The notes beneath the pieces were generated by a model that saw only the letters and a program-made list of their open reading frames with translations, had not been told where the DNA came from and searched no databases. A program made the position numbers and the translations under genes. A stretch of 64,000 nucleotides of DNA, from NCBI GenBank assembly GCA_000004985.1, contig GG738860.1, one strand, 5' to 3'. Positions 6,856 through 53,853 of the stretch are shown here, piece after piece (position 1 is the stretch's first letter; each line of letters begins with the position of its first letter). This DNA is from Naegleria gruberi (taxonomy: Eukaryota).

Positions 6856-9597
6856 ATGAACATTCAGGATTTCAGAAACTTGATGGATGTGCTCTCGTCC
6901 AACGATAATCAAGTTCGTCAAAACGCTGAAACCCATCTTGCCAATCTTAAGAATAATGACTTGGTATGTTTTTCATTTAATTGTTTTTATTAATCATTTT
7001 AACGTATTTTATTCTCCTCATCACCAACAATAATTTTTCTAGCCTAAATTTATGATTCTGTTAGTAACAGAACTTGCTGATGAAGCTAGACCAAACCATC
7101 TCAGACAATTGGCCGGTCTCCAACTTAAGAACCTTTTAGAATCCAAAGACTCACAAACAAAACATGCTTTAGAACAACAATGGTCCAGACAAGACGAAGA
7201 AACCAAAAATCAAATTAGAAATCAAGTTTTAGTAACACTCCACTCCACATCACAAGAAGCTAGAAAGACTGCTGCTCAAGTCCTCGCCGAATTTGCTTCT
7301 GTAGACTTGGTGCACAATCAATGGCTGAATGTTATTGAAACTGTCCTTAAAAACATTACCGAACCTTCTACACCTTTTGGTATTCAATCTAGCTTGATGG
7401 CCATTGGTTATCTGTGTGATATGTGTAGAGCCCCAGTTTTAAAGCACCAAACAAACCAAATTCTTACAGCTGTTATTCAAGGTATGAGAGAATCAGCAAA
7501 CAACGATATCAAATTTGCTGCCACACAAGCCTTGTTGAATTGTCTTGTTTTTGTTGAAGAAAACTTTTCAAGAGATGTAAGTATTATTATTATTTGAATC
7601 TTATTAATTCTAACTTTATATAGTCTGAAAGAGATTATATTATGCAAACCGTATGTGCATCAACCCAACTTCCAGACCCAAGAATTAGAGAAGTCGCTTT
7701 TGAATGTTTAGTTAAAATCGGATATTTGTACTATGATAAATTGTCACCATACATGGAAGCCATTTTTGGTGTAAGTAGTAATACTATTTTAACAAATTGA
7801 TATTAATTTATTAAAATATAGATCACAACCAAGGCTTTAACTGACCCTAATGAACAACAAGAAGTCCAATTACAAGCTATTGAATTCTGGACATCATTGG
7901 CTGAAACTGAAGCAATTATTCGTGAAGAAATTGATACTGCAATGGAAAATGATACCGAACCAATTAGACAAAGTTTCAATATTATTCTCCAAGCTCTTGC
8001 ACCATTAGTTGAACTTATGACTAAATGTCTTACAAGACAAGAAGAATATCAAGAAGATGGTGATATGTGTGTCAGTAATTATGCTTCAAATTGTATTGCT
8101 GCTATGGCCACTGTTGCTCAAGAAACAATTGTTGACCAAATTATGCCATTCGTTTCATCAAATATTAATAATCCAGATTGGCACTTTAAGGAAGCTGCTA
8201 CTTTGGCATTTTCTGCAATTTTGGATGGTCCAAGAAGAGGTGAAAGAATGAATGAACTTATCAACTCTGCCCTTCCATTCATTATGAGTCATGTTAATGA
8301 TGCAAACACTCTTGTCAAAGATACTTCAGTTTTTGCTCTTGGTAGAATTGCTGAATTCCATCCAGATCCATTGGTTGAAAATCATTTGGAAAATGTCCTC
8401 AAGACTCTTACAATTGCCTTCCAAGATGAAGCTCGTATTTGTAGTAAGGCTTGTTGGACTATTTTGCACATTGCAGAAGCTTTCTCAACTGATGATGATA
8501 GAGCTTCTTATCCACTTTCACAATACTTTAAGATTTTGGCTGAAATGCTCTTACAAGCTACTCTTAGACAAGATGCTTCTGAAAGCAATTTGAGAATCAA
8601 TGCTTATGAAGCTTTATCTGCTCTTGTTCACAGTGCTGCTAGAGATACCTATGAAATTTTGTCACACATTGTTGTTGAATTGTTGAATAGACTTGAACAA
8701 ACTCTTAACCACAGCCAAACTGAAGAAATCTGCTTGATTCAAGGTTTGATGTGTGGTGCTCTTCAAGTTTCTGCTAGAAAGCTCGAATTTAGAATTGTTC
8801 CAACTGCTGATAGAATCATGACCTTCTTGTTGAGAATCTTTGAATCTAAAAGCGCTAATGTTCATGAAGAAGCCTTCCTTGCTGTTGGTGCTGTCGCTGC
8901 TGCCCTTTCTAATGAATTCGACAGATATATGCCTCACTTTTTACCATTCTTATTGACTGGTTTGCAAACATTCCAATACGAACAAATCTGTCTTATCTGT
9001 GTCAACGTTATTGGTGATTTATGTATTGCTTTGAGAGACAAGCTTGCTTCTTATACTGATGCAATCATGGAAGTTCTTTTGAAGAATTTGCAAAACTCTG
9101 AATTGCAAAGAGATGTCAAACCAAACATTATTGCCTCTTTTGGTGATATTGCTCTTGCCATTGGTGTCAGATTTGAAAAATACATGAATTATGTTGGTAC
9201 TGTTTTGAGACAAGCTTGTGAAGCTCATGTTGATGCCACCAACGATGAAATGATTGATTATCTTAATCTTTTGAGAGAAAATATTTTCGAAGCCTATGTT
9301 GGTATTTTACTTGGCTTCAAGAAGGAAAATCCACAACTCTTTATTCCATATGTTGAATCAGTGTTAACCTTTGTCAAGATTGTCTATGAAGATCAAAATA
9401 CTGACCAACCTGTTTTCAATGCTGCTGTTTCTATCGTTAGTGACTTGGCTAATGTTTACGGTGTTGCCATCAAAGGTCCTATGCAACAAGAATTTATTAG
9501 AAATCTTGTCGAAGATGCAGTCAATTCAGCTGAATCAGAGACAAGAAAGATTGGTAATAAGGCTAAGAAGAACTTGAAGAAGATTACTCTCCTCTAA
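6856..9597 (+). CDS. KPNB1: Importin subunit beta-1 (karyopherin beta), 4 exons
   Basis: The exons are about 6856-6963, 7043-7576, 7624-7770 and 7822-9597, with GTATGT/GTAAGT donors and tag/atag acceptors. Exon 1 encodes 'MNIQDFRNLMDVLSSNDNQVRQNAETHLANL'. The protein aligns along its full length with importin-beta HEAT repeats and ends '...ATWATKEL..-like KKNLKKITLL'. Confidence 0.9.
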
Positions 9598-41967: not shown

Positions 41968-43029
41968 TTACAATAATTTCAAATGTTTTGTAACAGTATC
42001 AATTAATTCTACAGGAGCTGGACCAATTCCAAGTACTGTTTTCGATCCAGCTTCAATTTGAGTTCTTCCAGCATCAACAACAAGATAACAATTCAAACGT
42101 TGTTGTAAACATTTTTGAAATAAATTATCCAATTCCTTATCACTATCTGCTTTAAGACAAATCTTAGCTTCAGCTGTTACTTCCCAGTCATGTAAATATT
42201 GTTTCCATTGTTGCATATCTTGGTTGGTGATTTGTGTTGGCTCTGAATTTGATGATGAAAATAATAATTGAGTTTGAGCAAAATAGGAGGTGTTTTCATA
42301 GAGAATATTTCTATAGAGACCGACAGCTGCATGACAACATTGAGCAGCAATCTTTCCTTTACCCATATTCAAATCATTTCTAACAACAAATACCATCTTG
42401 TAAGCCTTTGATGTCGGGAATGATTTCATCAAATATTCTTGATATTTTTGATNNNNNNNNNNNNNNNNNNNNNNNNNNNNNNNNNNNNNNNNNNNNNNNN
42501 NNNNNNNNNNNNNNNNNNNNNNNNNNNNNNNNNNNNNNNNNNNNNNNNNNNNNNNNNNNNNNNNNNNNNNNNNNNNNNNNNNNNNNNNNNNNNNNNNNNN
42601 NNNNNNNNNNNNNNNNNNNNNNNNNNNNNNNNNNNNNNNNNNNNNNNNNNNNNNNNNNNNNNNNNNNNNNNNNNNNNNNNNNNNNNNNNNNNNNNNNNNN
42701 NNNNNNNNNNNNNNNNNNNNNNNNNNNNNNNNNNNNNNNNNNNNNNNNNNNNNNNNNNNNNNNNNNNNNNNNNNNNNNNNNNNNNNNNNNNNNNNNNNNN
42801 NNNNNNNNNNNNNNNNNNNNNNNNNNNNNNNNNNNNNNNNNNNNNNNNNNNNNNNNNNNNNNNNNNNNNNNNNNNNNNNNNNNNNNNNNNNNNNNNNNNN
42901 NNNNNNNNNNNNNNNNNNNNNNNNNNNNNNNNNNNNNNNNNNNTGTGTTCTTGTGATGACATTTTTTAATGAGTTGGAATTATTTTGAAAATAATCACAT
43001 GAGGAATAAATTGCAGAATTGAACATCAA
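41968..43029 (-). CDS. PTRH2: Peptidyl-tRNA hydrolase 2 (PTH2/PTRH2), interrupted by an assembly gap
   Basis: The C-terminal 150 aa are 'KMVFVVRNDLNMGKGKIAAQCCHAAVGLY...GRTQIEAGSKTVLGIGPAPVELIDTVTKHLKLL*', the canonical PTH2 fold and C-terminus. The N-terminal 27 aa are upstream of the gap. The middle is poly-N. Confidence 0.75.
   Translation of the reverse strand: MMFNSAIYSSCDYFQNNSNSLKNVITRTXXXXXXXXXXXXXXXXXXXXXXXXXXXXXXXXXXXXXXXXXXXXXXXXXXXXXXXXXXXXXXXXXXXXXXXXXXXXXXXXXXXXXXXXXXXXXXXXXXXXXXXXXXXXXXXXXXXXXXXXXXXXXXXXXXXXXXXXXXXXXXXXXXXXXXXXXXXXXXXXXXXXXQKYQEYLMKSFPTSKAYKMVFVVRNDLNMGKGKIAAQCCHAAVGLYRNILYENTSYFAQTQLLFSSSNSEPTQITNQDMQQWKQYLHDWEVTAEAKICLKADSDKELDNLFQKCLQQRLNCYLVVDAGRTQIEAGSKTVLGIGPAPVELIDTVTKHLKLL
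42453..42943. other. Assembly gap (about 490 N) inside the PTH2 gene
   Basis: Run of n characters. Confidence 0.99.
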
Positions 43030-43296
43030 TCTCGAGCCAATAAATTCACAAACAATTAAGAACTCTCCAATTAGACTTTAGATAGTTAAGGGATTGTTGA
43101 CGGAAGAGAATTTCATGTTTTATAGTTAGTATTTATAGAAATTAATAACAATAATAATTTGTACTTCACAACAGGAAAGTTGAAGAAACAATAATTTTCA
43201 AGTGGAAACTTTACAATTTCTTTCATCAAGAGGATTATCCAATCAATCAATTATTGAAATAAAAAAAAATTCAAATCACCCAGATCTTCTTTGAAC

Positions 43297-45741
43297 ATGG
43301 CCAGAACCAAGCAAACAGCGAGAAAATCGACGGGTGGCAAAGCTCCAAGAAAACAATTGGCTTACAAAGCTAGAAAAGCAAACAGACCTTTCCCTTCCCG
43401 TTCGTTGGCAGGTCCTTTTTCTGATGAGGAAAAAGCAATTTTTGTGAATGGTTTGAAAAGAGCCTTCGATGGAAGTGAAGAATCATCAAAATTTGATGTA
43501 AATACCTATGAAGGAGCTTCACAATTAGTCAAATTTTGGATTTTCCAAGATCAAAAAAGAAGAAAATTGAAACCAATGGTAGAGGAAGCTAAATGGAATG
43601 GCAGCTTTGAATTGCTTCACAATCTTCCTATGGATATCAAGTATGAAATTATTGATTTTATTCCAACCTTTTCCTTGAGAGATTTTTACAAAATCAAGTT
43701 AGACGAATTCACTGAACAGATGAAGCTGGCACAAGTTGAAGATATTTCTAAAATTGTATGCAAAGGACTGAATTTGTTTGAAACCTTTACAAAGAGATCT
43801 TTTCAAAATTTGTACTATTCAGATCCTCTCTATAGAAACTATTACAAGAAGAGACTAATTAACAGAGAATATGCATTAAGAATGAAACAAAGGATATTGA
43901 AGTTGGATGAGTTTGATATTACAGATATTGATTATGATATTGGTTCTGTAAAGAAAGACAAACTATTGCACTTCTTTTCGTTGGTTAAGGAGATGAATGA
44001 AATTGACACTGTTGACTTTAATGATGTGGTCATTCACAGAAATATTGAAAAAATCAAGTCATTGGTAAATGGAACCACCACAAAAAGAAATGAAGATGAT
44101 TACGAGTCACCTTGTGAAGAACCAATGGATGATACTGATTCAATTAGTAATGAGCCTAATGTAACTGTATCATTTGATGAAATGGAGCTACTTTCTGAGG
44201 AAGAAATGAAAAAGTTAGAATCAAAATCTATTGCCATACTGCAGGAATCAGAAAGAGGATATTATAATACTCGTAATTACAATAAGTTTAACAAGCAAGA
44301 TAGTAAATCTTTTAGAAAGCAAGCGATGTATTCGTATGCTATACCATTGGAACTAATAGGAACTGGTGCTATTCCACAAGAACAAAATTTTACTCGTGCC
44401 TTTTCTCACGAAGAGATTATGGAAAGGCTTAAGGAGTTTATTGGAATTAATTCATCCATTAAGAAACTTTCTGTCAGAGGTCTAGATGTCGGCTTTACAA
44501 ACACTGCCATGGACATCTGTAAAGGAATAACAGATCTTTCAATACTTTTATGTGAGTACGTGGATTATTTTGAGTGCTTTAAAGAAGTCCTACCAAATCT
44601 CAACAAGCTGACTATTAATGGAGTTTCTTCTCATTACTCAATTAGTTTTATGGAAAGCTTTATGATTGAGGAATATATTCAACCTAACTGTGTTGTTGAT
44701 TTAGGGTTTGCTACAGGCACTGACACATATTTCTCGGATTTTTTAAATCGTTATGTTGAAGATCAAAACGGTAACAAGACTCCATTGAAAATTACCTCAA
44801 AACTACTCTCAACTGAAAACGTAACCGAATATGCCGACTTTTTATTGAGGTTTATAGAAGGAGTATCTTTCGGCCAATTGTTTTCTGATTTTGATATGAA
44901 AAAGAAATTGGTAGATTACTTGGTAATTGAAGTTGGCATTCCAATTGAATGGCTTACGCTTACCACAAGTGGAGATACTATAATTACAGAATACTTAGCT
45001 TATCTTTCAAATGTTTATCAAAATGGGGCAATTAATTGTCCAAGCTCTATTATGTTACGAGCAGGCTTGATTCCAAATAATATAGCCAATGAATTGGTTT
45101 TTTCTAAATATGAATGGGATGTTGTTGAGTTATGTTTAGATTATTTAAAAAAGAGAGATGATATTGATGACTTTGTTTTGACCCTTAGAAATTTGCTCGT
45201 TTTCTATGTGTGTGATAGAAGTGATTCTCCACTCTTTGAACTATATTGTTACATTAAGAAGAATATTCCAGAAAGTCAATTCAAAGAAATTTTAAAGCCT
45301 ATCAAATGTATCATTCCAGAAGGCTACAAAGAAAAGAACAATGAAACCTTGCATACAGTTTCTATTCCCATCATTTGCTTCCCATTCTCAAATTACCAAT
45401 TCGCTAAAGCTATCGTGGATGATATGACAGACGAAGATTTGAAATTTGTTAATGAGCTTGGTGACTCATGTCTGCACATTTATTCTAGACATGACCATAG
45501 TATTTGGAGTAGAATAGTTGAAAGAGTACCAGAGGTAGTCAAACTCAGCAACCCTGAGGGAGTAACACCTTTACATATTCATACTACCAATATCCAGTCA
45601 TACATATTTGTATTAGACTTGTTGACAAGATTTGGTGCTGACCCAAATGCAAAAGATATTGAAGGAAGAAAAGCTATTGGTGAATTTTTTATATTTGAGA
45701 ATGGTATTTTGAAAGTTAACAACAGATCAATGGAATATTAG
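43297..45741 (+). CDS. Histone-H3-tail-bearing F-box-like / LRR-like / ankyrin-repeat protein (814 aa)
   Basis: One uninterrupted ORF. Residues 1-22 'MARTKQTARKSTGGKAPRKQLA' are identical to the canonical histone H3 N-terminus, followed by 'YKARKAN' (compare 'TKAARKS'). An F-box-like segment follows ('LHNLPMDIKYEIIDFIPTFSLRDFYKIKL'), then LRR-like middle sequence. The C-terminus has ankyrin repeats ('GVTPLHIHTTNIQSYIFVLDLLTRFGADPNAKDIEGRKAI'). Confidence 0.6.
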   Translation: MARTKQTARKSTGGKAPRKQLAYKARKANRPFPSRSLAGPFSDEEKAIFVNGLKRAFDGSEESSKFDVNTYEGASQLVKFWIFQDQKRRKLKPMVEEAKWNGSFELLHNLPMDIKYEIIDFIPTFSLRDFYKIKLDEFTEQMKLAQVEDISKIVCKGLNLFETFTKRSFQNLYYSDPLYRNYYKKRLINREYALRMKQRILKLDEFDITDIDYDIGSVKKDKLLHFFSLVKEMNEIDTVDFNDVVIHRNIEKIKSLVNGTTTKRNEDDYESPCEEPMDDTDSISNEPNVTVSFDEMELLSEEEMKKLESKSIAILQESERGYYNTRNYNKFNKQDSKSFRKQAMYSYAIPLELIGTGAIPQEQNFTRAFSHEEIMERLKEFIGINSSIKKLSVRGLDVGFTNTAMDICKGITDLSILLCEYVDYFECFKEVLPNLNKLTINGVSSHYSISFMESFMIEEYIQPNCVVDLGFATGTDTYFSDFLNRYVEDQNGNKTPLKITSKLLSTENVTEYADFLLRFIEGVSFGQLFSDFDMKKKLVDYLVIEVGIPIEWLTLTTSGDTIITEYLAYLSNVYQNGAINCPSSIMLRAGLIPNNIANELVFSKYEWDVVELCLDYLKKRDDIDDFVLTLRNLLVFYVCDRSDSPLFELYCYIKKNIPESQFKEILKPIKCIIPEGYKEKNNETLHTVSIPIICFPFSNYQFAKAIVDDMTDEDLKFVNELGDSCLHIYSRHDHSIWSRIVERVPEVVKLSNPEGVTPLHIHTTNIQSYIFVLDLLTRFGADPNAKDIEGRKAIGEFFIFENGILKVNNRSMEY

Positions 45742-45834: not shown

Positions 45835-48800
45835 TTATACAATAACAGGAGGAAGTCTCTCTCTTGAAATTGGACGAGACAGAGCTCGCTTCTCTGCCTC
45901 ATATTCTTCTATTTTCTCTCTAAGGGATTGAATCTTGTGTCGTTGCATTTCGATTTCCTTCAAAGCTTGTTCTAATGATGTAATACCACCAAGGTCCTTT
46001 AGTTCCAAAGATGATGAAGTTATATCGGTGCTCTTCTTTCCAATCTTGGACTCGAGCTCCTTGTCTTTAAGTTTTTGCTTTAGAGATCTAACTTCCTTTC
46101 TCAGGTCATTAATTTCCTTGATGAGGACAACATTTTCATTCATGATTCTCTTATTATCTGACTTGGAGGTTTCTGTTGCTTTAACAAGCTTCTTCTTGAG
46201 TGATTCGACTGTTTTTTCGAGGTAGGATCTTTGTCTTTCATATTCCTTTTGAATGTCAAAGTCCATTTCTTGAGTAGTAATCTTTTCAGAGACGTAGGTT
46301 TGGTAAAGCTTGGTAACCTCTTCTTTAAGCTCCTTTGGCTCTTGAATTAATTGTGCAACCTTGTAAATATCTGCACGAATTCTCTTCAATAGAGTGTCAT
46401 TATCTTTGACTTTAAAGTTCAGTCTTTGAATTTCCTTGACTCTTCCATCAATCTTGAGTTCGAGATCCTTGATTGAGAGAATTAATCTATCATTCTTCTC
46501 CTTAGCCTTTTCCAATTCTTTTCTCATCTTCTTGGATTGCTTTCTTAAACTGGTAATTTCTTCCTTACTTGGTTTGATTTGTTCTTGGAGAGTTGAAATC
46601 TTGTATTCTAAAACAAATCTGAATTTTTCAAGTTCTTGGTTTTGTCTCTTCAACTTGAAAATTCTCTTTTCCTTGTCAATAATGGTTTCTTCTCTTTCCT
46701 TATTTTCCTCACTCATCTTTTGAATATCCTCTTGATATTGCTTATTGAGATTTTCTGCTCTTTGCTTCTTTTCTTCCAACTTTTCAATAAGTTCTAGTTT
46801 TTGTTTCAAAGTCTTTTGTAAGGCAATAAATCTGTCATTCCACTTGTTAGCTTCACTCTTGGCTTCATTGTAGCTGTCGTTCATCTTTAACAACTTCTTT
46901 TCATACATTTCTTTCAAGATCTTGATTTCCTTATCTTGATCCTCTTCCATTTGATTTTTAATTTCGGAAAATTTCTTGTCCAACTCGACCTTCTCATCTT
47001 GTAATGTAACAATAGATCCATCTTTTCTCTTAATTTCATCTTCATATTCTTCCGTAATATCTGTGAGCTCTCTCATGTGCATTTCCTCCTTATTCTTGGA
47101 ATCATCTAGGATTTGCTTCTTCTCCTTCTCTCTGTCTCTGTTGAGTTCGGAAATTTGTTCAAGAGAATTGTGCAATCTCTCGTTAAAGTCTTGTTCCAGA
47201 GCTTTGATTTTTTCTCTGTGTTTTTCTATCAACTCATCGATTTTCTTCTCGTACTCATCTGTTACACTTTTCTTCTCTTGCAAAATACTTTGAATTTCCT
47301 CTTGTTTCTTTGTAAGTTCAAGATTGAAGCTTTTTGCTTGTTCTCTGAGAGCATTATTGAATTCAATTTCCTTTTTCTTTTGCTCGTATTCATTGTCTGA
47401 CTTTAATTCTGCAACTTTTGCTTGAAGCTCAGCAATTGTGGTATTCTTTTCTTCCCATTCTGCTCCTGAAATCAAAATTTCTTCCGAATATTTTGTTTCC
47501 TTCTTAGTTTTACCTCCATCTCTGTCTCTTATTTCCACAATACCCAGCATACCATCTTCACCTGAACTGAATAAGAAAGAATCATCCCAAGCTTTAGAAA
47601 TTCTTGTCACAGGACCTGAGTGCAAGTATAGTTTGTCTTCTATATACTCCAGATTTGGAAATGAATGCACAGTAATAGCACCAGTCTCTAGACCACCAAA
47701 TATCATCTTTAATCCTTCAGAGTACTCCATACAAACCAATGTATTATCTCCCAAATCATATTCTGTTTGTGGATTACCTTCACTGAAGCCCTTAATCTTG
47801 TTATCTGATCCAGTAACAAAAATACTCTTTCCGTCTGTGGCGACAGATGTGTATCCAACATTCTTATTAGTATGGTGAATGGTTCTCTTCTCAGTTTTTA
47901 CAACATATTCGTACACAGCACCATCCATACCAACACTCAGTACTCTAGTATCATCATCAGTCCATTGAAGAGCTCTGATTTTACCATTGTGGCCCCTGAG
48001 GGCAGATATTAATTGGAGAGTGTAGGTATTGTAAACGTTGATTACGTTACCGTGAGCTGCTGCAAAGTAATGACCACCATTACTGAACTTTACCTCACCA
48101 CAATTTCTTACCAAGAAAGATTTCTGCTCTCTAATATCATCTCCCAAAATATCCATAAATCTCAGTTTATCTTGGAAACCAACAACCAAGTGCAAACCAC
48201 TAGGGTGAATTGCTATTGAGTAGGCCTCGGCTGGGAATTGTTTTACAATATTCAGTGTATTATCCAAGTAGTTCCATACTCTGACAGTCTTATCTGTACT
48301 GCAGGTCGCAATAATTGGCTTTCTAATAGCAGTATCCATTCCCGTTATGGCCTTTGAGTGGAATGGAATTGTGAGATATTCAAATTTAATGTCATCTTCC
48401 TTTTGTAAAATATCAGAACTACTGATATTCAAAGTAAATATTTGAGCTGAACTTGTTGAAAGGACCAAGTTTTCATTTGAAGGACTCAAATTAAAATTGA
48501 GAATTTTGTGATCGAGATAGGTTTCGCTCAGTTCCTTATATTGAGTGCTATTCATAACTCGTAAAGTCTTTGATCTTGAATACATTTCCTTTTCATCGGC
48601 CGATTTTTCAAATATTGAAACAACTCCATTCTCACCTCCACATACAAACCCAGTTCCATAAGGAATGAGTGCTGTTATACTAAGTCCATCTGATGGAGAT
48701 GAGGGTAAAATAAATTTAAATTCATTCTTTTCAACGAAAAATAAATCTCCGTTAGCATTTGAAACAACTAACTTCTCTTCATCTAACCAGGTATGAGACA

Positions 48801-49467
48801 GATAAGGCTCATGATCTCTTTTGCCAATACCGTCTGTCACAACTTTGAGTTTTTCTCTATCATCTAGGGTTAATAATTTAAATACACCATTACCAGTAAC
48901 ACAAATAGTTTTGCTATCTGGACTAATTGAACATTGAAAGACTGGATCTCCATCCACTGAAGATGTACAAATCGTATCAACTATCCTAGTTTTACCTTCC
49001 ATAGACCACAAAACTAAATTATATTCTGGACCTCCTCCTTGGGCTACCAAATATTTACCATCCAATGAGAAAGCCATACAAACAAATTCATGAGATCCAA
49101 CACCTGGATGAGAAATCGTCTTTTTGACTGTGTATGTTGTTGTTTCATAGAGTTTAATAAGAGGTGGGTTTTTTTTGAGGTCAGTGATCTTTACAGTTGA
49201 TGAAAGTGGTTTTGTTTTTTCTGCAACAGCCAAATATTTTCTATTAGGTGCTAGACAAAGAGCTGATATTCCTTCCGTATTATCGGACCCTGTTTTAATC
49301 TTCCTCACTCCATTTGTTTGATGAAAAACTAGGCATCTACCTGAAGGGTAAACGACACATGTATCGTTGACATTATCTCTAATGTACCAGATATTATTTT
49401 TTACCTTTGCATTAAGACCAAACACATTTTTAAGTGAGAGGATGTGGTTTTGAAATGGTTCAGTCAT
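45835..49467 (-). CDS. CFAP57: Cilia- and flagella-associated protein 57 (CFAP57/WDR65) homolog
   Basis: 1210 aa, single exon. The N-terminal WD40 beta-propeller region includes 'NVFGLNAKVKNNIWY' (compare 'HVFGLRSHVANNVFY'). The long C-terminal coiled coil includes 'KRIFKLKRQNQELEKFRFVLEYKISTLQEQIKP' (compare '[33 protein letters not shown]'). Confidence 0.85.
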   Translation of the reverse strand: MTEPFQNHILSLKNVFGLNAKVKNNIWYIRDNVNDTCVVYPSGRCLVFHQTNGVRKIKTGSDNTEGISALCLAPNRKYLAVAEKTKPLSSTVKITDLKKNPPLIKLYETTTYTVKKTISHPGVGSHEFVCMAFSLDGKYLVAQGGGPEYNLVLWSMEGKTRIVDTICTSSVDGDPVFQCSISPDSKTICVTGNGVFKLLTLDDREKLKVVTDGIGKRDHEPYLSHTWLDEEKLVVSNANGDLFFVEKNEFKFILPSSPSDGLSITALIPYGTGFVCGGENGVVSIFEKSADEKEMYSRSKTLRVMNSTQYKELSETYLDHKILNFNLSPSNENLVLSTSSAQIFTLNISSSDILQKEDDIKFEYLTIPFHSKAITGMDTAIRKPIIATCSTDKTVRVWNYLDNTLNIVKQFPAEAYSIAIHPSGLHLVVGFQDKLRFMDILGDDIREQKSFLVRNCGEVKFSNGGHYFAAAHGNVINVYNTYTLQLISALRGHNGKIRALQWTDDDTRVLSVGMDGAVYEYVVKTEKRTIHHTNKNVGYTSVATDGKSIFVTGSDNKIKGFSEGNPQTEYDLGDNTLVCMEYSEGLKMIFGGLETGAITVHSFPNLEYIEDKLYLHSGPVTRISKAWDDSFLFSSGEDGMLGIVEIRDRDGGKTKKETKYSEEILISGAEWEEKNTTIAELQAKVAELKSDNEYEQKKKEIEFNNALREQAKSFNLELTKKQEEIQSILQEKKSVTDEYEKKIDELIEKHREKIKALEQDFNERLHNSLEQISELNRDREKEKKQILDDSKNKEEMHMRELTDITEEYEDEIKRKDGSIVTLQDEKVELDKKFSEIKNQMEEDQDKEIKILKEMYEKKLLKMNDSYNEAKSEANKWNDRFIALQKTLKQKLELIEKLEEKKQRAENLNKQYQEDIQKMSEENKEREETIIDKEKRIFKLKRQNQELEKFRFVLEYKISTLQEQIKPSKEEITSLRKQSKKMRKELEKAKEKNDRLILSIKDLELKIDGRVKEIQRLNFKVKDNDTLLKRIRADIYKVAQLIQEPKELKEEVTKLYQTYVSEKITTQEMDFDIQKEYERQRSYLEKTVESLKKKLVKATETSKSDNKRIMNENVVLIKEINDLRKEVRSLKQKLKDKELESKIGKKSTDITSSSLELKDLGGITSLEQALKEIEMQRHKIQSLREKIEEYEAEKRALSRPISRERLPPVIV

Positions 49468-50049: not shown

Positions 50050-52470
50050 ATGGATGCCCGTGTTGCAGTAACGAAAGGTACGTTAAGAGAGAGATGAATT
50101 TAAGAATATTAAGGCCTCTGTTCATACATCATCAATATAATACCATTTTAATATCGGACTTGAATAAATAGATGATTTTGAGTATGGACAAATATTGGGT
50201 GAAGGTGCTTTTGGCCAAGTTCGTTTGTGTGTCCATAAAGCAACAGAACTTCAATACGCAGCTAAAGTATTGAAGAAGGAAAAACTTATTAAGGCCAAAC
50301 AAACGAAATATGTCAAATCAGAGAAGGAAATATTATTGGAGATGGATCATCCTAACATTTCAAAATTGTGTTATACCTTCACTGATGAAAAGAAGTTGTA
50401 CTTTGTGTTGGAACTTATTTCTGGAGGAGAATTATTTGAGTGTATTATAAAGAGCAATGTAGCAAATGATAATAAGGAATTGAAAAAAGTTGCTCAATTT
50501 TACATGGCTCAAATGTTGGAAGCACTGATCTATATTCACAGTCTTAATATTTGTCACAGAGATCTTAAACCCGAAAATCTAATGCTTACAGGATCTGGTA
50601 ATTTAAAATTGGTGGATTTTGGTATTGCAAAGAAAATTGATAGACCAGGTCCGAATACATTCTGGTAAGTTAAAATATGAAAATCTTGAAAATCTTAATT
50701 TCCAATAGTGGTACTGCTGAATATTTGGCGTAAGTTTTCTTATCAACTTGATTATATTGATGATTTCTCAATAGACCCGAAGTTGTCAGTAATAATGAAT
50801 ATGGTATTATGGTAGATTGGTGGTCTTATGGTTGTATTATTTACGAATTATTTTGTGGAAAGAGTCCTTTTTACAGCTCTAGTATGGCTGTAACTTGTCA
50901 AAAGATTGTTGATAGAGACATCTATTGGCCAAAGACAATGCCACCAGATGCCAAGGATTTAATTAATGGACTTCTCACTACAGACCCAGAAAAGAGAATT
51001 GGAGGTCCTGAATTAAGAAAGCATCCATTTTTCAAAGGAATTGATTGGAAGAATTTAAACAAGGCTGACCCACCTCTGGTTCCAGATCTTTTGTTCAATG
51101 ATGAAGATAGAGGTGTTGGTATTAAAATGTCCATGTTTGAACCTAGAGTGGATCAGGAAGACGTCATGATAAATGCTCACGTTTTCAAATCGAGATCAAG
51201 CAGTAAAGGATCAACGCAAGATGCAATCAAGAGAAGCAACTTGCTCAGAAAAATGTACCCTCAATTGTGTGCTCTCCCAGAGAGACCAAGACCAATCAAT
51301 TCAAGAATTATTCAAAACTCTGAAAATGTTCCAAAATCCAATGATAAGGTAGAAGAGGAGGAGGTAGATGATAGGGGTGATACTCAATCGGAATGTACTA
51401 GTGTCAATGAGGTCAGTAAGAAGGTCGTTATGATTCAAAATGCTGTCGGTTTGAAAACTCCTGTTATCAGGATTGCATTTGGAGAAGGTGACAAGATGGC
51501 TTGTAGTAGTAGTTTCCAAGCAAAAACATTTGGAATTGGAATTGACAGTGAATCTAATGTCATTTTCAATGAATATAAGAATTTATCAACTGTATCCACA
51601 TGTAATTACTTGGAATATTCTCCAAATGGTGAAACACTTGCCTTCGACATGCAAAGACATATTGGTTTGTTGGACTTGAAGAATCCAAAGAAAAAACCAA
51701 GACAATTGGTGGGGCATTCCCTTCCAATTACAAAGGTTTCTTGGCATCCAAAGAGCCACATGTTGGCTGCCGGAGGAAGAGATAACCTGGTGTACTTGTG
51801 GAATGTTGACAGCTCCAAACCAAAGCTTGAGGCTCAAATGGATTCACACAAATCATATATTTCAGATCTTCAATTCCATGCAAAAGATCATCTACTTGCC
51901 AGTGGAAGTGGAGATTTCAAAGTTGTATTCTACGACATTCAAAGTCAGAGAATTGTACAAAAGTACAGTTACCATGAAGATGCAATTCTTGGTGTGAGGT
52001 GGAATCCTAAATTCCCTGACATTTTTGTTTCCTGGTCTTTGGATAGAAGACTAATCTTCTCCGACCGCAGAACTTTCAAACCTATTAAGGTTCTAGCTCA
52101 TAATAGACCTGTGATTCATGCTCAATGGTCACCTGATGGATCAATGCTTGCCACCTGCAGCAAAGATTCCATTAGAATTTGGTCCTATCCATCAATTACC
52201 TCCTCTTTCGTCTACACCAATTCTGAAAGTCTTCCTGGTGAACATCTCTCTTTCGAATGTAATAGCAATTATTTGGCAGTATTGAAATGCAGAGATGATA
52301 CCTCTCCTTCAGTCATTGATACCTCTTCCTTTTCTTTTGTTTCTCCAAATCCACATCCTCAAAACTCACACAAACTCCCAATTACTAGTCTGCAATGGAG
52401 TAATAACAGACCATTCCTTGCCACTGGTTCCTATGATAAGTCTGTTATTTTGTGGGGTGTTGATGAATAA
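50050..52470 (+). CDS. AGC-family Ser/Thr protein kinase fused to C-terminal WD40 repeats, 4 exons including a 21-nt micro-exon
   Basis: The exons are about 50050-50077 ('MDARVAVTK', GTACGT donor), 50172-50664, 50709-50729 and 50775-52470. Phases 1, 2 and 2 are all consistent. The splices reconstruct the kinase subdomain VIII 'DFGIAKK...NTF|CGTAEYLA|PEVV'. The kinase core is 'GEGAFGQVRLCVHK...HRDLKPENLML...DFG'. The AGC C-tail is 'HPFFKGIDWKNL..PPLVP'. The last roughly 300 aa are WD40 repeats ('LAAGGRDNLVYLWNV', 'LASGSGDFKVVFYDI', 'LATCSKDSIRIWSY', 'LATGSYDKSVILWGV'). Confidence 0.8.
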
Positions 52471-52587: not shown

Positions 52588-53853
52588 TTAGAATACACCA
52601 AATTTATATTGAGGAGGTATTGGAATGTCGTAACCCAATTCCTTCGCAGCTCTGATTGGCCAATATGGATCACCCAAATCCTTTCTTCCAATAAATACTA
52701 AATCAGCTTTTCCTTCTGTCAATATTTGATTGGCTTGTACTGGTTCAGTAATTTTACCAACAGCTGCCACAGGCATTACTTGTCTAACCCTTTCTGCATA
52801 TTTCACTTGATACATTGGAAATGCCATGAGAGCTTGGGATAGTAATCTTGATGAATTACCTCCTGATGAACAGTCAATTATATCAACTCCCAAATCTTTC
52901 AAAATTTCAGCTAACCTCACACTATCCTCAATATCCCAACCATCACTCACATACTCATCACATGATATTCTTACAAATAGAGGCATTGTCTCTGGAATGC
53001 AACTTCTTACTCGACTAACAATTTCAGTTAGAATTCTTATACGATTCTCAAAAGAACCACCAAATTTGTCTTTTCTCTTATTAGATGTTGGTGATAAGAA
53101 GGAATTAATCATATAACCATGAGCTGCATGTATCTCAATCACATCAAAACCAGCCAAGACAGCTCTCTTAGCAGCAGCTACAAAGTCTTCAATCAATTCT
53201 TCCACCTCATCTTCAGTCAACTCTCTCGGAACTCTATGTGATTCATCAAATGCAATTGGAGAAGGTCCAACCACTTCCCATCCTCCTTCTTCATCACTTA
53301 ATGCAGTTCTTCCTAGGGCTTCCCACAATGCACGTGTTGAACCTTTTCTCCCAGAATGAGCCAACTGAATACCAATATGTCCACCTTGTTCATGAGCTAA
53401 ATCCGTAATCTGTTTCAACATTTCCACATGTTCGTCCTTGTAAATTCCCAAACAATGAGGAGTAATTCTTCCAATTTCAGAAACAGCAGATGCCTCCACT
53501 ATAAACAAGCCAGCACCACCTACCACTCTACTGCCAATATGTTGCACATGCCACAGATTAGCAAAACCATCCTTGCTAGAATAGGTACACATTGGAGAAA
53601 CTACAATTCTATTCTTCAAAGTCAATCCTCTAATTGTGTAAGGTTGAAATAACATTGGAGTGTCTGAGGAGGGCATGATTGCCTTTTTGGCTTCTGCCAA
53701 TCCTGTTAGAGCTTGAATAATAACACCAACCCAGTTGACCATGATGACGAAGATGTGAAGAGAATTTTTTCTAATAGTTTTTTCATGCTTGCTGAATATT
53801 TGTTGGACTTGAACAAAAGTGGTGCGAATTAATGCGAAGAACACCCCGTCCAA
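52588..53853 (-). CDS. NADH:flavin oxidoreductase of the old-yellow-enzyme family (YqjM/thermophilic-like class)
   Basis: 'LFQPYTIRGLTLKNRIVVSPMCTYSS', 'GLFIVEASAVSEIGRIT', 'IGIQLAHSGRK', 'IEIHAAHGYMINSFLSP' and a C-terminal 'IPIPPQYKFG' closely match bacterial YqjM-type OYEs. It is intronless. The true start is probably an internal Met (for example the ATG at about 53676, 'MPSSDTPMLF'). The upstream 60 codons may be a targeting extension or read-through. Confidence 0.75.
   Translation of the reverse strand: MDGVFFALIRTTFVQVQQIFSKHEKTIRKNSLHIFVIMVNWVGVIIQALTGLAEAKKAIMPSSDTPMLFQPYTIRGLTLKNRIVVSPMCTYSSKDGFANLWHVQHIGSRVVGGAGLFIVEASAVSEIGRITPHCLGIYKDEHVEMLKQITDLAHEQGGHIGIQLAHSGRKGSTRALWEALGRTALSDEEGGWEVVGPSPIAFDESHRVPRELTEDEVEELIEDFVAAAKRAVLAGFDVIEIHAAHGYMINSFLSPTSNKRKDKFGGSFENRIRILTEIVSRVRSCIPETMPLFVRISCDEYVSDGWDIEDSVRLAEILKDLGVDIIDCSSGGNSSRLLSQALMAFPMYQVKYAERVRQVMPVAAVGKITEPVQANQILTEGKADLVFIGRKDLGDPYWPIRAAKELGYDIPIPPQYKFGVF

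Follow-up and report, generated by a model that had tools for sequence, protein, structure and literature searches.

Protein kinases of the AGC group are normally controlled by a C-terminal tail together with lipid- or nucleotide-binding modules. A WD40 propeller is carried by the Dictyostelium myosin heavy-chain kinases (MHCK), where it directs the enzyme to its substrate. Kinome studies show WD40 repeats to be frequent accessory domains in other kinase groups: of the 14 WD40 kinases of Dictyostelium none is an AGC kinase (PMC1420674), and the one WD40 kinase of Phytophthora infestans was assigned to the 'OTHER' group (PMC3019232). Here we describe a gene of the heterolobosean Naegleria gruberi in which an AGC-type kinase domain and a WD40 propeller are joined in one polypeptide. 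It occupies positions 50050-52470, on the + strand, of a 64,000-nucleotide stretch of contig GG738860.1 (GenBank assembly GCA_000004985.1), which is called the window below. An earlier note, made from the letters of this stretch and a list of its open reading frames (ORFs), had pointed to the gene and had called kinase-WD40 fusions uncommon in eukaryotes. As such this does not hold, given the 14 in Dictyostelium, but the combination of an AGC kinase with WD40 repeats is indeed unusual.

Gene structure

Four segments of the locus join into a single reading frame and make up one four-exon protein-coding gene, the spliced exons totalling 2238 nucleotides, or 745 codons and a stop (Table 1). Both this structure and the domain architecture of the 745-residue product are close to certain; the whole length of the protein is covered by an AGC-type Pkinase domain (residues 13-267), a linker without Pfam match and the WD40 region. 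The exon coordinates and intron phases (1, 2 and 2) are exactly those that the earlier note had proposed, and its claim that the catalytic domain becomes continuous only when all four exons, including one of 21 nucleotides, are joined was borne out by the splice analysis. All introns are of the GT..AG type (GTACGT or GTAAGT at the 5' end, ATAG at the 3' end), in a window that is AT-rich throughout (34% guanine plus cytosine, GC). The splice junctions of the N. gruberi gene are supported by homology and by comparison across species.

An in-frame TAA lies two codons 5' of the ATG of exon 1. Exon 2 has an in-frame TAA immediately upstream and contains no usable ATG, so a short upstream exon is required. 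The A-V-[TS]-K at the end of exon 1 and the intron before DDFE are common to N. gruberi, Naegleria lovaniensis (with an exon 1 of 43 nucleotides) and Willaertia magna (31 nucleotides). Left unspliced, the reading of exon 2 ends in NTFW and then a stop, and the next long ORF begins within the kinase C-lobe (MVDWW...); the ORF listed at 50809-52470 (553 amino acids) is the frame of exon 4.

The fusion itself does not depend on splicing. Exon 4 is one continuous frame that encodes the APE segment, the kinase C-lobe, the linker and the propeller before it ends in the stop codon, and orthologues have the same architecture, which upholds the view in the earlier note that kinase and propeller belong to one gene. 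A transcriptome contig of Percolomonas carries an orthologue of 869 amino acids as one unbroken ORF, and in Acrasis the kinase C-lobe and the propeller lie within one exon of 2172 nucleotides.

The 21-nucleotide micro-exon supplies CGTAEYL of the activation segment, as the earlier note had proposed. When the GT-AG combinations around it were enumerated, seven kept the frame, and the proposed one was the sole combination that restored TFCGTAEYLAPEVV and the activation segment NTFCGTAEYLAPEVV. The alternative combinations were rejected because all of them delete the APE segment, which every active protein kinase needs. In a single-sequence search of the PDB, the restored segment matches TFCGTPEYLAPEV of human AKT1 residue for residue, the AKT1 activation segment in this alignment reading KTFCGTPEYLAPEV. 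In N. lovaniensis and W. magna the orthologous gene is likewise annotated with four exons (43/487/21/1654 and 31/487/21/1720 nucleotides), the third of which has 21 nucleotides in both. Across the three species the micro-exon DNA shows synonymous differences only, and the introns that flank it have diverged in sequence and in length (44, 88 and 41 nucleotides before it and 45, 78 and 38 after it in N. gruberi, N. lovaniensis and W. magna, respectively). The micro-exon is missing from the ORF list, as the earlier note had said; it was, however, already contained in the public partial model described below.

Skipping of the micro-exon in N. gruberi, by joining 50664 to 50775, would create an in-frame stop across the junction (TG-A). 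The same skip in N. lovaniensis and W. magna would give an in-frame deletion of seven residues (junction codons TGT and TGG), which makes the exon indispensable in N. gruberi alone. In the orthologue of Acrasis kona (JAOPGA020001475.1, 3001-5504) the sole intron, of 35 nucleotides, lies at residue 99 and there is none near the activation segment; the micro-exon therefore arose when the Naegleria/Willaertia branch gained two introns. The Acrasis kona gene model is without a start codon.

Public annotation

The gene is represented in public databases by XP_002678752.1 (EFC46008.1), 'predicted protein, partial [Naegleria gruberi]', a sequence of 267 amino acids that corresponds to window positions 50172-51054. 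By exact look-up, its residues 2-267 match residues 10-275 of the 745-residue model with 100% identity. It includes the micro-exon and most of the kinase domain but is without exon 1, the tail and the propeller, beginning with a read-through codon (I) just 5' of the exon-2 acceptor and ending in IDWKNL without a stop codon. An exact look-up of the 745-residue N. gruberi sequence in a collection of 15 billion proteins did not find it. The 267-residue fragment should give way to the four-exon model.

Among the orthologues, the full-length fusion is annotated as a 'hypothetical protein' in Naegleria fowleri (FDP41_005049, 770 amino acids) and in W. magna, 'TPK1, partial' in Acrasis kona and 'cAMP-dependent protein kinase type 3' in Andalucia godoyi. 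The N. lovaniensis entry is full-length save for its C-terminus, which is frameshifted. There (PYSW02000015.1, about 8390-8560) the annotated protein ends in SVIDTKPDLSSMLRYSRTMLTSSQ, and the conserved last blade, which ends in HKQPVTSLQWSNNRPFLATGSFDKTVNLWGVE before its stop, is encoded just downstream in a different frame; the likely cause is a one-base frameshift of the assembly or a faulty gene model.

The kinase domain

The Pfam search that the earlier note had suggested as a check returned both of the domains it had named, Pkinase on residues 13-267 (E = 1.7e-75) and WD40 (PF00400) at 111-118 bits against a cut-off of 27. The motifs read in that note are all present, and the protein has GEGAFG (residues 19-24), HRDLKPEN (138-145), DFG (158-160), TFCGT (172-176), APE (181-183) and HPFF (264-267). 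With AAKV, which contains K41, and SEKEIL, which contains E60, the catalytic set is full: G-loop, VAIK lysine, alphaC glutamate, HRD, DFG and APE. Most of these residues are invariant in the eight family members that have a full kinase domain, HRDLKPEN and DFG strictly so; the first G-loop glycine, the DFG+1 position and the APE alanine each vary in a single member. Thr172 of the activation loop (50657-50659) stands in the TFCGT context and is phosphorylatable. When NTFCGTAEYLAPE is aligned with KTFCGTPEYLAPE of AKT1, the T-F-C-G-T-x-x-Y-x-A-P-E context of the PDK1 site is present, in part encoded by the micro-exon.

Among solved structures, the single N. gruberi sequence scored best against AKT1 (232 bits, 7e-68), followed by SGK1 (216), yeast Tpk1 (208) and PDK1 (202). 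A profile of the family gave 305 bits with yeast Tpk1, 288 with PDK1, 286 with AKT, 283 with SGK1 and 280 with PKA. Judged by these similarities, the catalytic domain is a member of the AGC group, as the earlier note had it, and stands about equidistant from PKA, PDK1, AKT and SGK, so that it is assigned to no subfamily. In particular, Pfam finds no PH domain, and PDK1 is the closest kinase neither to the single sequence nor to the family profile, which speaks against its placement in the PDK1 subfamily.

The PDK1-interacting fragment (PIF) pocket of PDK1 is lined by K115, I118, I119, V127, R131, T148 and L155. Opposite these positions the profile alignment has K, L, I, V, K, T and L, respectively, while Q150 is not conserved.

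Tail, linker and propeller

Kinase domain and propeller are joined by a tail of 130 residues that contains one conserved helix motif. The earlier note had also read an AGC tail. Its first part, from HPFF to PPxxP, is present; the hydrophobic motif and a match to Pkinase_C were not found. Residues 264-405 matched neither Pkinase_C (PF00433) nor any other Pfam family, even at E <= 10, and the motif F-x-x-F-[S/T/D/E]-[Y/F] is absent from 13 of 14 members, including N. gruberi. PDK1, an accepted AGC kinase, is also without a hydrophobic motif, so its absence is no bar to membership of the group. One environmental, Naegleria-like sequence has FEPYSY at the site of FEPRVD in N. gruberi and FDPSNE in W. 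magna, which may be a remnant of the hydrophobic motif or a chance match.

Structures were predicted with AlphaFold2 (AF2), the tail and propeller being modelled on the window's own exon-4 frame and the full-length protein on the W. magna orthologue. The predicted local distance difference test score (pLDDT) of the tail is low in both models, and in the full-length one it is below 50 over the tail and much of the linker; the family-specific linker motif (Table 1) is modelled as a helix in both. An alignment of 10 sequences has L345, P349 and R351 of this motif invariant and D330, R334, S335, L338, R339, Y342, P343 and P352 nearly so, and the motif is recognisable in four additional environmental members.

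The C-terminal WD40 region named in the earlier note is confirmed by Pfam, AF2 and Foldseek, although it extends over about 350-370 residues and not 300. It stands in place of the PH or C1/C2 modules, as that note had observed, with WD40 C-terminal and no PH in the Pfam result. The exon-4 model has a pLDDT of about 90 over residues 397-745 and contains 31 strands. In Foldseek it comes closest to Rsa4/NLE1 (E = 5e-24) and human ODA16 (target-normalised TM-score 0.85), with WDR5, RACK1 and LIS1 next. Rsa4/NLE1 and ODA16 are eight-bladed, and the propeller modelled here is probably eight-bladed as well, this being the most consistent reading.

A more specific identity for the propeller (THOC3, CDC20, WDR5, TBL1, Rsa4 or ODA16) was rejected, since no specific Pfam propeller family reaches its cut-off and the structures matched are those to be expected of any propeller with seven or eight blades. 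The scores against specific Pfam families, with the cut-off after the stroke, were 141/305 bits for THOC3, 122/200 for CDC20, 74-90/250 for WDR5 and 95/320 for Prp19. For WDR3 and TBL1/HOS15, too, neither a score over the cut-off nor a clear orthology was seen. When the propeller alone was used as the query, family members scored about 600 bits, the next match 156 and generic WD40 proteins 125 or less, and no stand-alone orthologue of the propeller was found in this search. The best named matches outside the family are HOS15/TBL1, at about 100 bits and 28% identity.

Distribution of the family

The earlier note had raised the search for orthologues with the same fusion; these exist in at least five named genera. 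Full-length orthologues were found in N. fowleri, N. lovaniensis, W. magna, Acrasis kona, Percolomonas sp. and Andalucia godoyi, and in environmental clusters. A word-indexed search yielded nine fusion clusters above the background of RSK-type kinases. An exhaustive search of 1.84 billion representatives with a full-length family profile gave seven true members among the best 150 matches, the lowest of which scored 428 bits; the others among the 150 either were giant proteins with many WD40 repeats or contained two kinase domains. Four of these seven members are new environmental sequences that share the linker motif and the C-terminal blades. The Percolomonas contig (MMETSP0759, 4971 nucleotides) carries, besides the 869-residue fusion ORF, a second gene of 678 amino acids on the opposite strand, 97 nucleotides downstream. 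Transcripts that overlap or read through may be the cause, as may contamination with genomic DNA; in either case the fusion ORF has no interruption.

All named members belong to Discoba, the heteroloboseans Naegleria, Willaertia, Acrasis and Percolomonas and the jakobid Andalucia. An alignment of 10 members has 34 invariant and more than 60 nearly invariant columns spread across kinase, linker and propeller. These columns, together with the purely synonymous changes in the micro-exon, indicate that all three parts are conserved under selection. In a rough neighbour-joining tree the members fall into a heterolobosean-like and a jakobid-like clade. The architecture goes back to the ancestor shared by heteroloboseans and jakobids and was retained in several lineages, the tree being compatible with vertical descent from a Discoba ancestor.

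Proposed function and alternative explanations

Taken as a whole, we consider it fairly probable that the protein is an active kinase that is targeted or regulated via its propeller, which would act as a built-in docking platform. The kinase domain would be a catalytically active one of the AGC type, whose Thr172 would need phosphorylation, either from a PDK1-type kinase or through autophosphorylation. Like the PH domains of PDK1 and AKT and the WD40 domains of the Dictyostelium myosin heavy-chain kinases, the propeller would bring the kinase to its substrates, its partners or a site in the cell. Because the protein has no hydrophobic motif of its own and the PIF-pocket residues are largely conserved in appearance, the N-lobe pocket probably receives either the linker helix of the same chain (in cis) or a partner (in trans). 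That the propeller might tether substrates or regulators to a scaffolded kinase, as the earlier note suggested, is plausible.

Several observations weigh against this proposal. Specific propeller families score below the Pfam cut-offs and there is no orthologue of known function, which leaves no pointer to the ligand. For the W. magna orthologue, the full-length model reaches a predicted template modelling score (pTM) of only 0.52, so the arrangement of kinase and propeller is not confidently predicted; with the low pLDDT of the tail and linker, this makes docking of the linker helix in cis a matter of conjecture. The serine of the RS motif in the linker is replaced by Q in two members, which weakens models based on its phosphorylation. 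Furthermore, a literature search by accession and by topic found no published description of an AGC-WD40 family and no experiment on any member.

A more far-reaching version would see here a new mode of AGC regulation. The linker helix and an eight-bladed propeller in cis would replace the hydrophobic-motif tail, and binding of a ligand by the propeller or phosphorylation at the RS site would control occupancy of the PIF pocket and hence activity, in an ancient signalling module peculiar to Discoba. We regard this as unlikely.

Somewhat less likely again is that the protein is a divergent PDK1-type 'master' AGC kinase with WD40 repeats in place of the PH domain. Through its PIF pocket such an enzyme would bind the hydrophobic motifs of other AGC kinases, whose activation loops it would phosphorylate. 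Like PDK1, it combines the want of its own hydrophobic motif with a C-terminal, non-catalytic targeting domain, its PIF-pocket positions look conserved, and the PDK1 score of the family profile (288 bits) is near the top. The activation loop has GTAEY, to be set beside GTAQY in PDK1 and GTPEY in AKT, and the C-lobe has QKI, where PDK1 has FQKI. The profile is nevertheless no nearer to PDK1 than to yeast PKA (305), AKT (286) or SGK (283), and the single sequence is nearer to AKT (232 against 202 bits). Since PDK1 is reported to belong to the ancestral eukaryotic core (PMC3236823), a separate N. gruberi orthologue is likely. Moreover, our searches found no family member among Euglenozoa or other groups, and those groups keep AGC kinases that need PDK1.

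The protein might instead be mainly a scaffold, its propeller and linker doing the work and its kinase domain having little or no catalytic role, as in Vps15-like assemblies. In favour of such a role, the linker and the non-canonical first blades show the strongest family-specific conservation, and the AGC regulatory tail is degenerate. All catalytic residues are present, however (G-loop, Lys41, Glu60, HRD, Asn, DFG and APE), most of them invariant in the eight members noted above, whereas pseudokinases normally lose some of them; we therefore think this quite improbable.

We give still less credence to an unrecognised component of the pathway associated with the mitochondrial type II secretion system (T2SS; Gsp/Gcp). 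The gene set of that pathway is limited to heteroloboseans, jakobids, malawimonads and hemimastigotes, and three of its proteins, Gcp1-3, are WD40 proteins (Horvathova et al. 2021, PMC8134430). The distribution of our named members, in Heterolobosea and Jakobida and not in Euglenozoa, overlaps with it. But the main text of PMC8134430 names no kinase, and in its supplements the word appears only for unrelated proteins of a N. gruberi proteomics table; neither the word-indexed search nor the matches listed in the exhaustive search contained a family member from malawimonads or hemimastigotes; and Acrasis and Willaertia lie outside that study. The distribution is accounted for equally well if the family was inherited from a Discoba ancestor and lost in Euglenozoa. 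A relationship to Gcp1-3 was also rejected on the propeller itself, BLASTP against N. gruberi Gcp1 and A. godoyi Gcp1-3 giving 43 bits or less at 19-27% identity, compared with about 85 bits for WDR5.

Finally, that separate kinase and WD40 genes or transcripts merely look fused in the genomic sequence is hardly credible, for while the public N. gruberi model does end with the kinase domain (267 amino acids, partial) and prokaryote-style gene callers applied to metagenome contigs yield fragments of C-lobe, linker and propeller without most of the kinase, named 'WD40 repeat protein', a single exon, read in one frame and free of stops, holds both the C-lobe (starting at APE/VDWW) and the propeller, without need of any splice signal, a kinase terminating at WKNL would have no stop codon, the linker motif is strongly conserved, Percolomonas and Acrasis have the single ORF or exon described above, and the protein is annotated at full length in N. 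fowleri, W. magna and, with its frameshifted C-terminus, N. lovaniensis.

Other features of the window

The kinase-WD40 gene lies between two ORFs on the opposite strand (Table 1). The layout of the upstream one is reminiscent of flagellar WD40/coiled-coil proteins; its exact sequence occurs in the protein collection from an ENA contig alone and not under the name of N. gruberi. The downstream oxidoreductase ORF has a TTG start, and its first ~65 residues are probably not the true N-terminus. The GC fraction falls to 0.24 at 42001-44000, compared with about 0.34 in the rest of the window.

Table 1. Position and content of the kinase-WD40 gene, its encoded domains and the neighbouring ORFs (positions are those of the window)
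Feature	Position	Strand	Description
Upstream neighbour	45835-49467	-	Single ORF of 1210 amino acids; two EML-type WD40 propellers, then a lysine/glutamate-rich, coiled-coil-like region of roughly 550 residues
Exon 1	50050-50077	+	28 nucleotides; ATG, MDARVAVTK and first base of the following codon; phase 1; donor GTACGT
Intron 1	50078-50171	+	94 nucleotides; GTACGT...AATAG; 29% GC
Exon 2	50172-50664	+	493 nucleotides; N-lobe, catalytic loop, DFG, activation loop to NTF and two bases of the Cys codon
Protein kinase domain	50180-51033	+	Residues 13-267, split by introns 2 and 3; catalytic motifs intact
Intron 2	50665-50708	+	44 nucleotides; GTAAGT...CAATAG; 20% GC
Exon 3 (micro-exon)	50709-50729	+	21 nucleotides; (C)GTAEYL(A) of the activation segment / P+1 loop
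Intron 3	50730-50774	+	45 nucleotides; GTAAGT...CAATAG; 24% GC
Exon 4	50775-52470	+	1696 nucleotides; APE, kinase C-lobe, tail, linker, entire WD40 propeller, TAA stop; one frame
AGC-tail remnant	51034-51219	+	Residues 268-329; conserved PPxxP (PPLVP, 280-284), then a poorly conserved, probably disordered stretch
Family-specific linker motif	51220-51294	+	Residues 330-354, DAIKRSNLLRKMYPQLCALPERPRP; consensus [RK]RSxxLRxMYPxLxxLPxRPxP; predicted helical
WD40 beta-propeller	51421-52467	+	Residues about 397-745; possible extra strand at 375-377
Downstream neighbour	52588-53853	-	Convergent with the kinase gene; Old Yellow Enzyme-type NADH:flavin oxidoreductase; Oxidored_FMN E = 1.1e-78, ORF residues 68-406

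Comparison with known systems

The N. gruberi protein has the same type of catalytic domain as the AGC kinases yeast Tpk1, PDK1, AKT/PKB and SGK1, with TFCGTxEYxAPE and its PDK1-site threonine, the HPFF..W end and the PPxxP start of the tail. It differs from them in that a WD40 propeller takes the place of PH, C1/C2 or cNMP-binding domains or of a separate regulatory subunit, and would thus be an independent solution to the targeting and regulation of an AGC kinase. The likeness to PDK1 extends to the missing hydrophobic motif, a putative PIF pocket and the flexible linker followed by a C-terminal targeting domain. Compared with PDK1, however, it has WD40 for PH, its kinase is not specifically PDK1-like, and it possesses a conserved linker helix motif, which PDK1 is without.

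The same order of kinase and then propeller is found in MHCK A-D of Dictyostelium, an alpha-kinase with C-terminal WD40 repeats in each case, and these are the best functional analogy. Their kinase domain is nonetheless an atypical alpha-kinase unrelated to the AGC group, only the generic WD40 fold is common to both, and they belong to Amoebozoa. LRRK2/ROCO proteins and Vps15 likewise carry a WD40 propeller C-terminal to the kinase in one polypeptide, but LRRK2 is a tyrosine kinase-like (TKL) kinase with ROC-COR and repeats, Vps15 has a HEAT region between kinase and WD40, and the N. gruberi protein has neither domain set. Bacterial Ser/Thr kinase (STK)-WD40 proteins of the PkwA type also place the kinase before the propeller, and the WD40 domains of PkwA and of cyanobacterial STK-WD40 proteins were among the generic matches to ours; they are Hanks-type and not AGC kinases, and the WD40 similarity is a generic one (about 80 bits).

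Seen among these systems, the fusion is one of many lineage-specific combinations of kinase domains in protists and holds no surprise in mechanism. Its presence in the brain-eating amoeba N. fowleri (FDP41_005049), together with the fact that it was not found in animals, means that it could be considered for kinase-directed drug work. The family is a lineage-restricted variant both of the AGC kinase and of the kinase-WD40 fusion, which stands un- or half-annotated in public databases.

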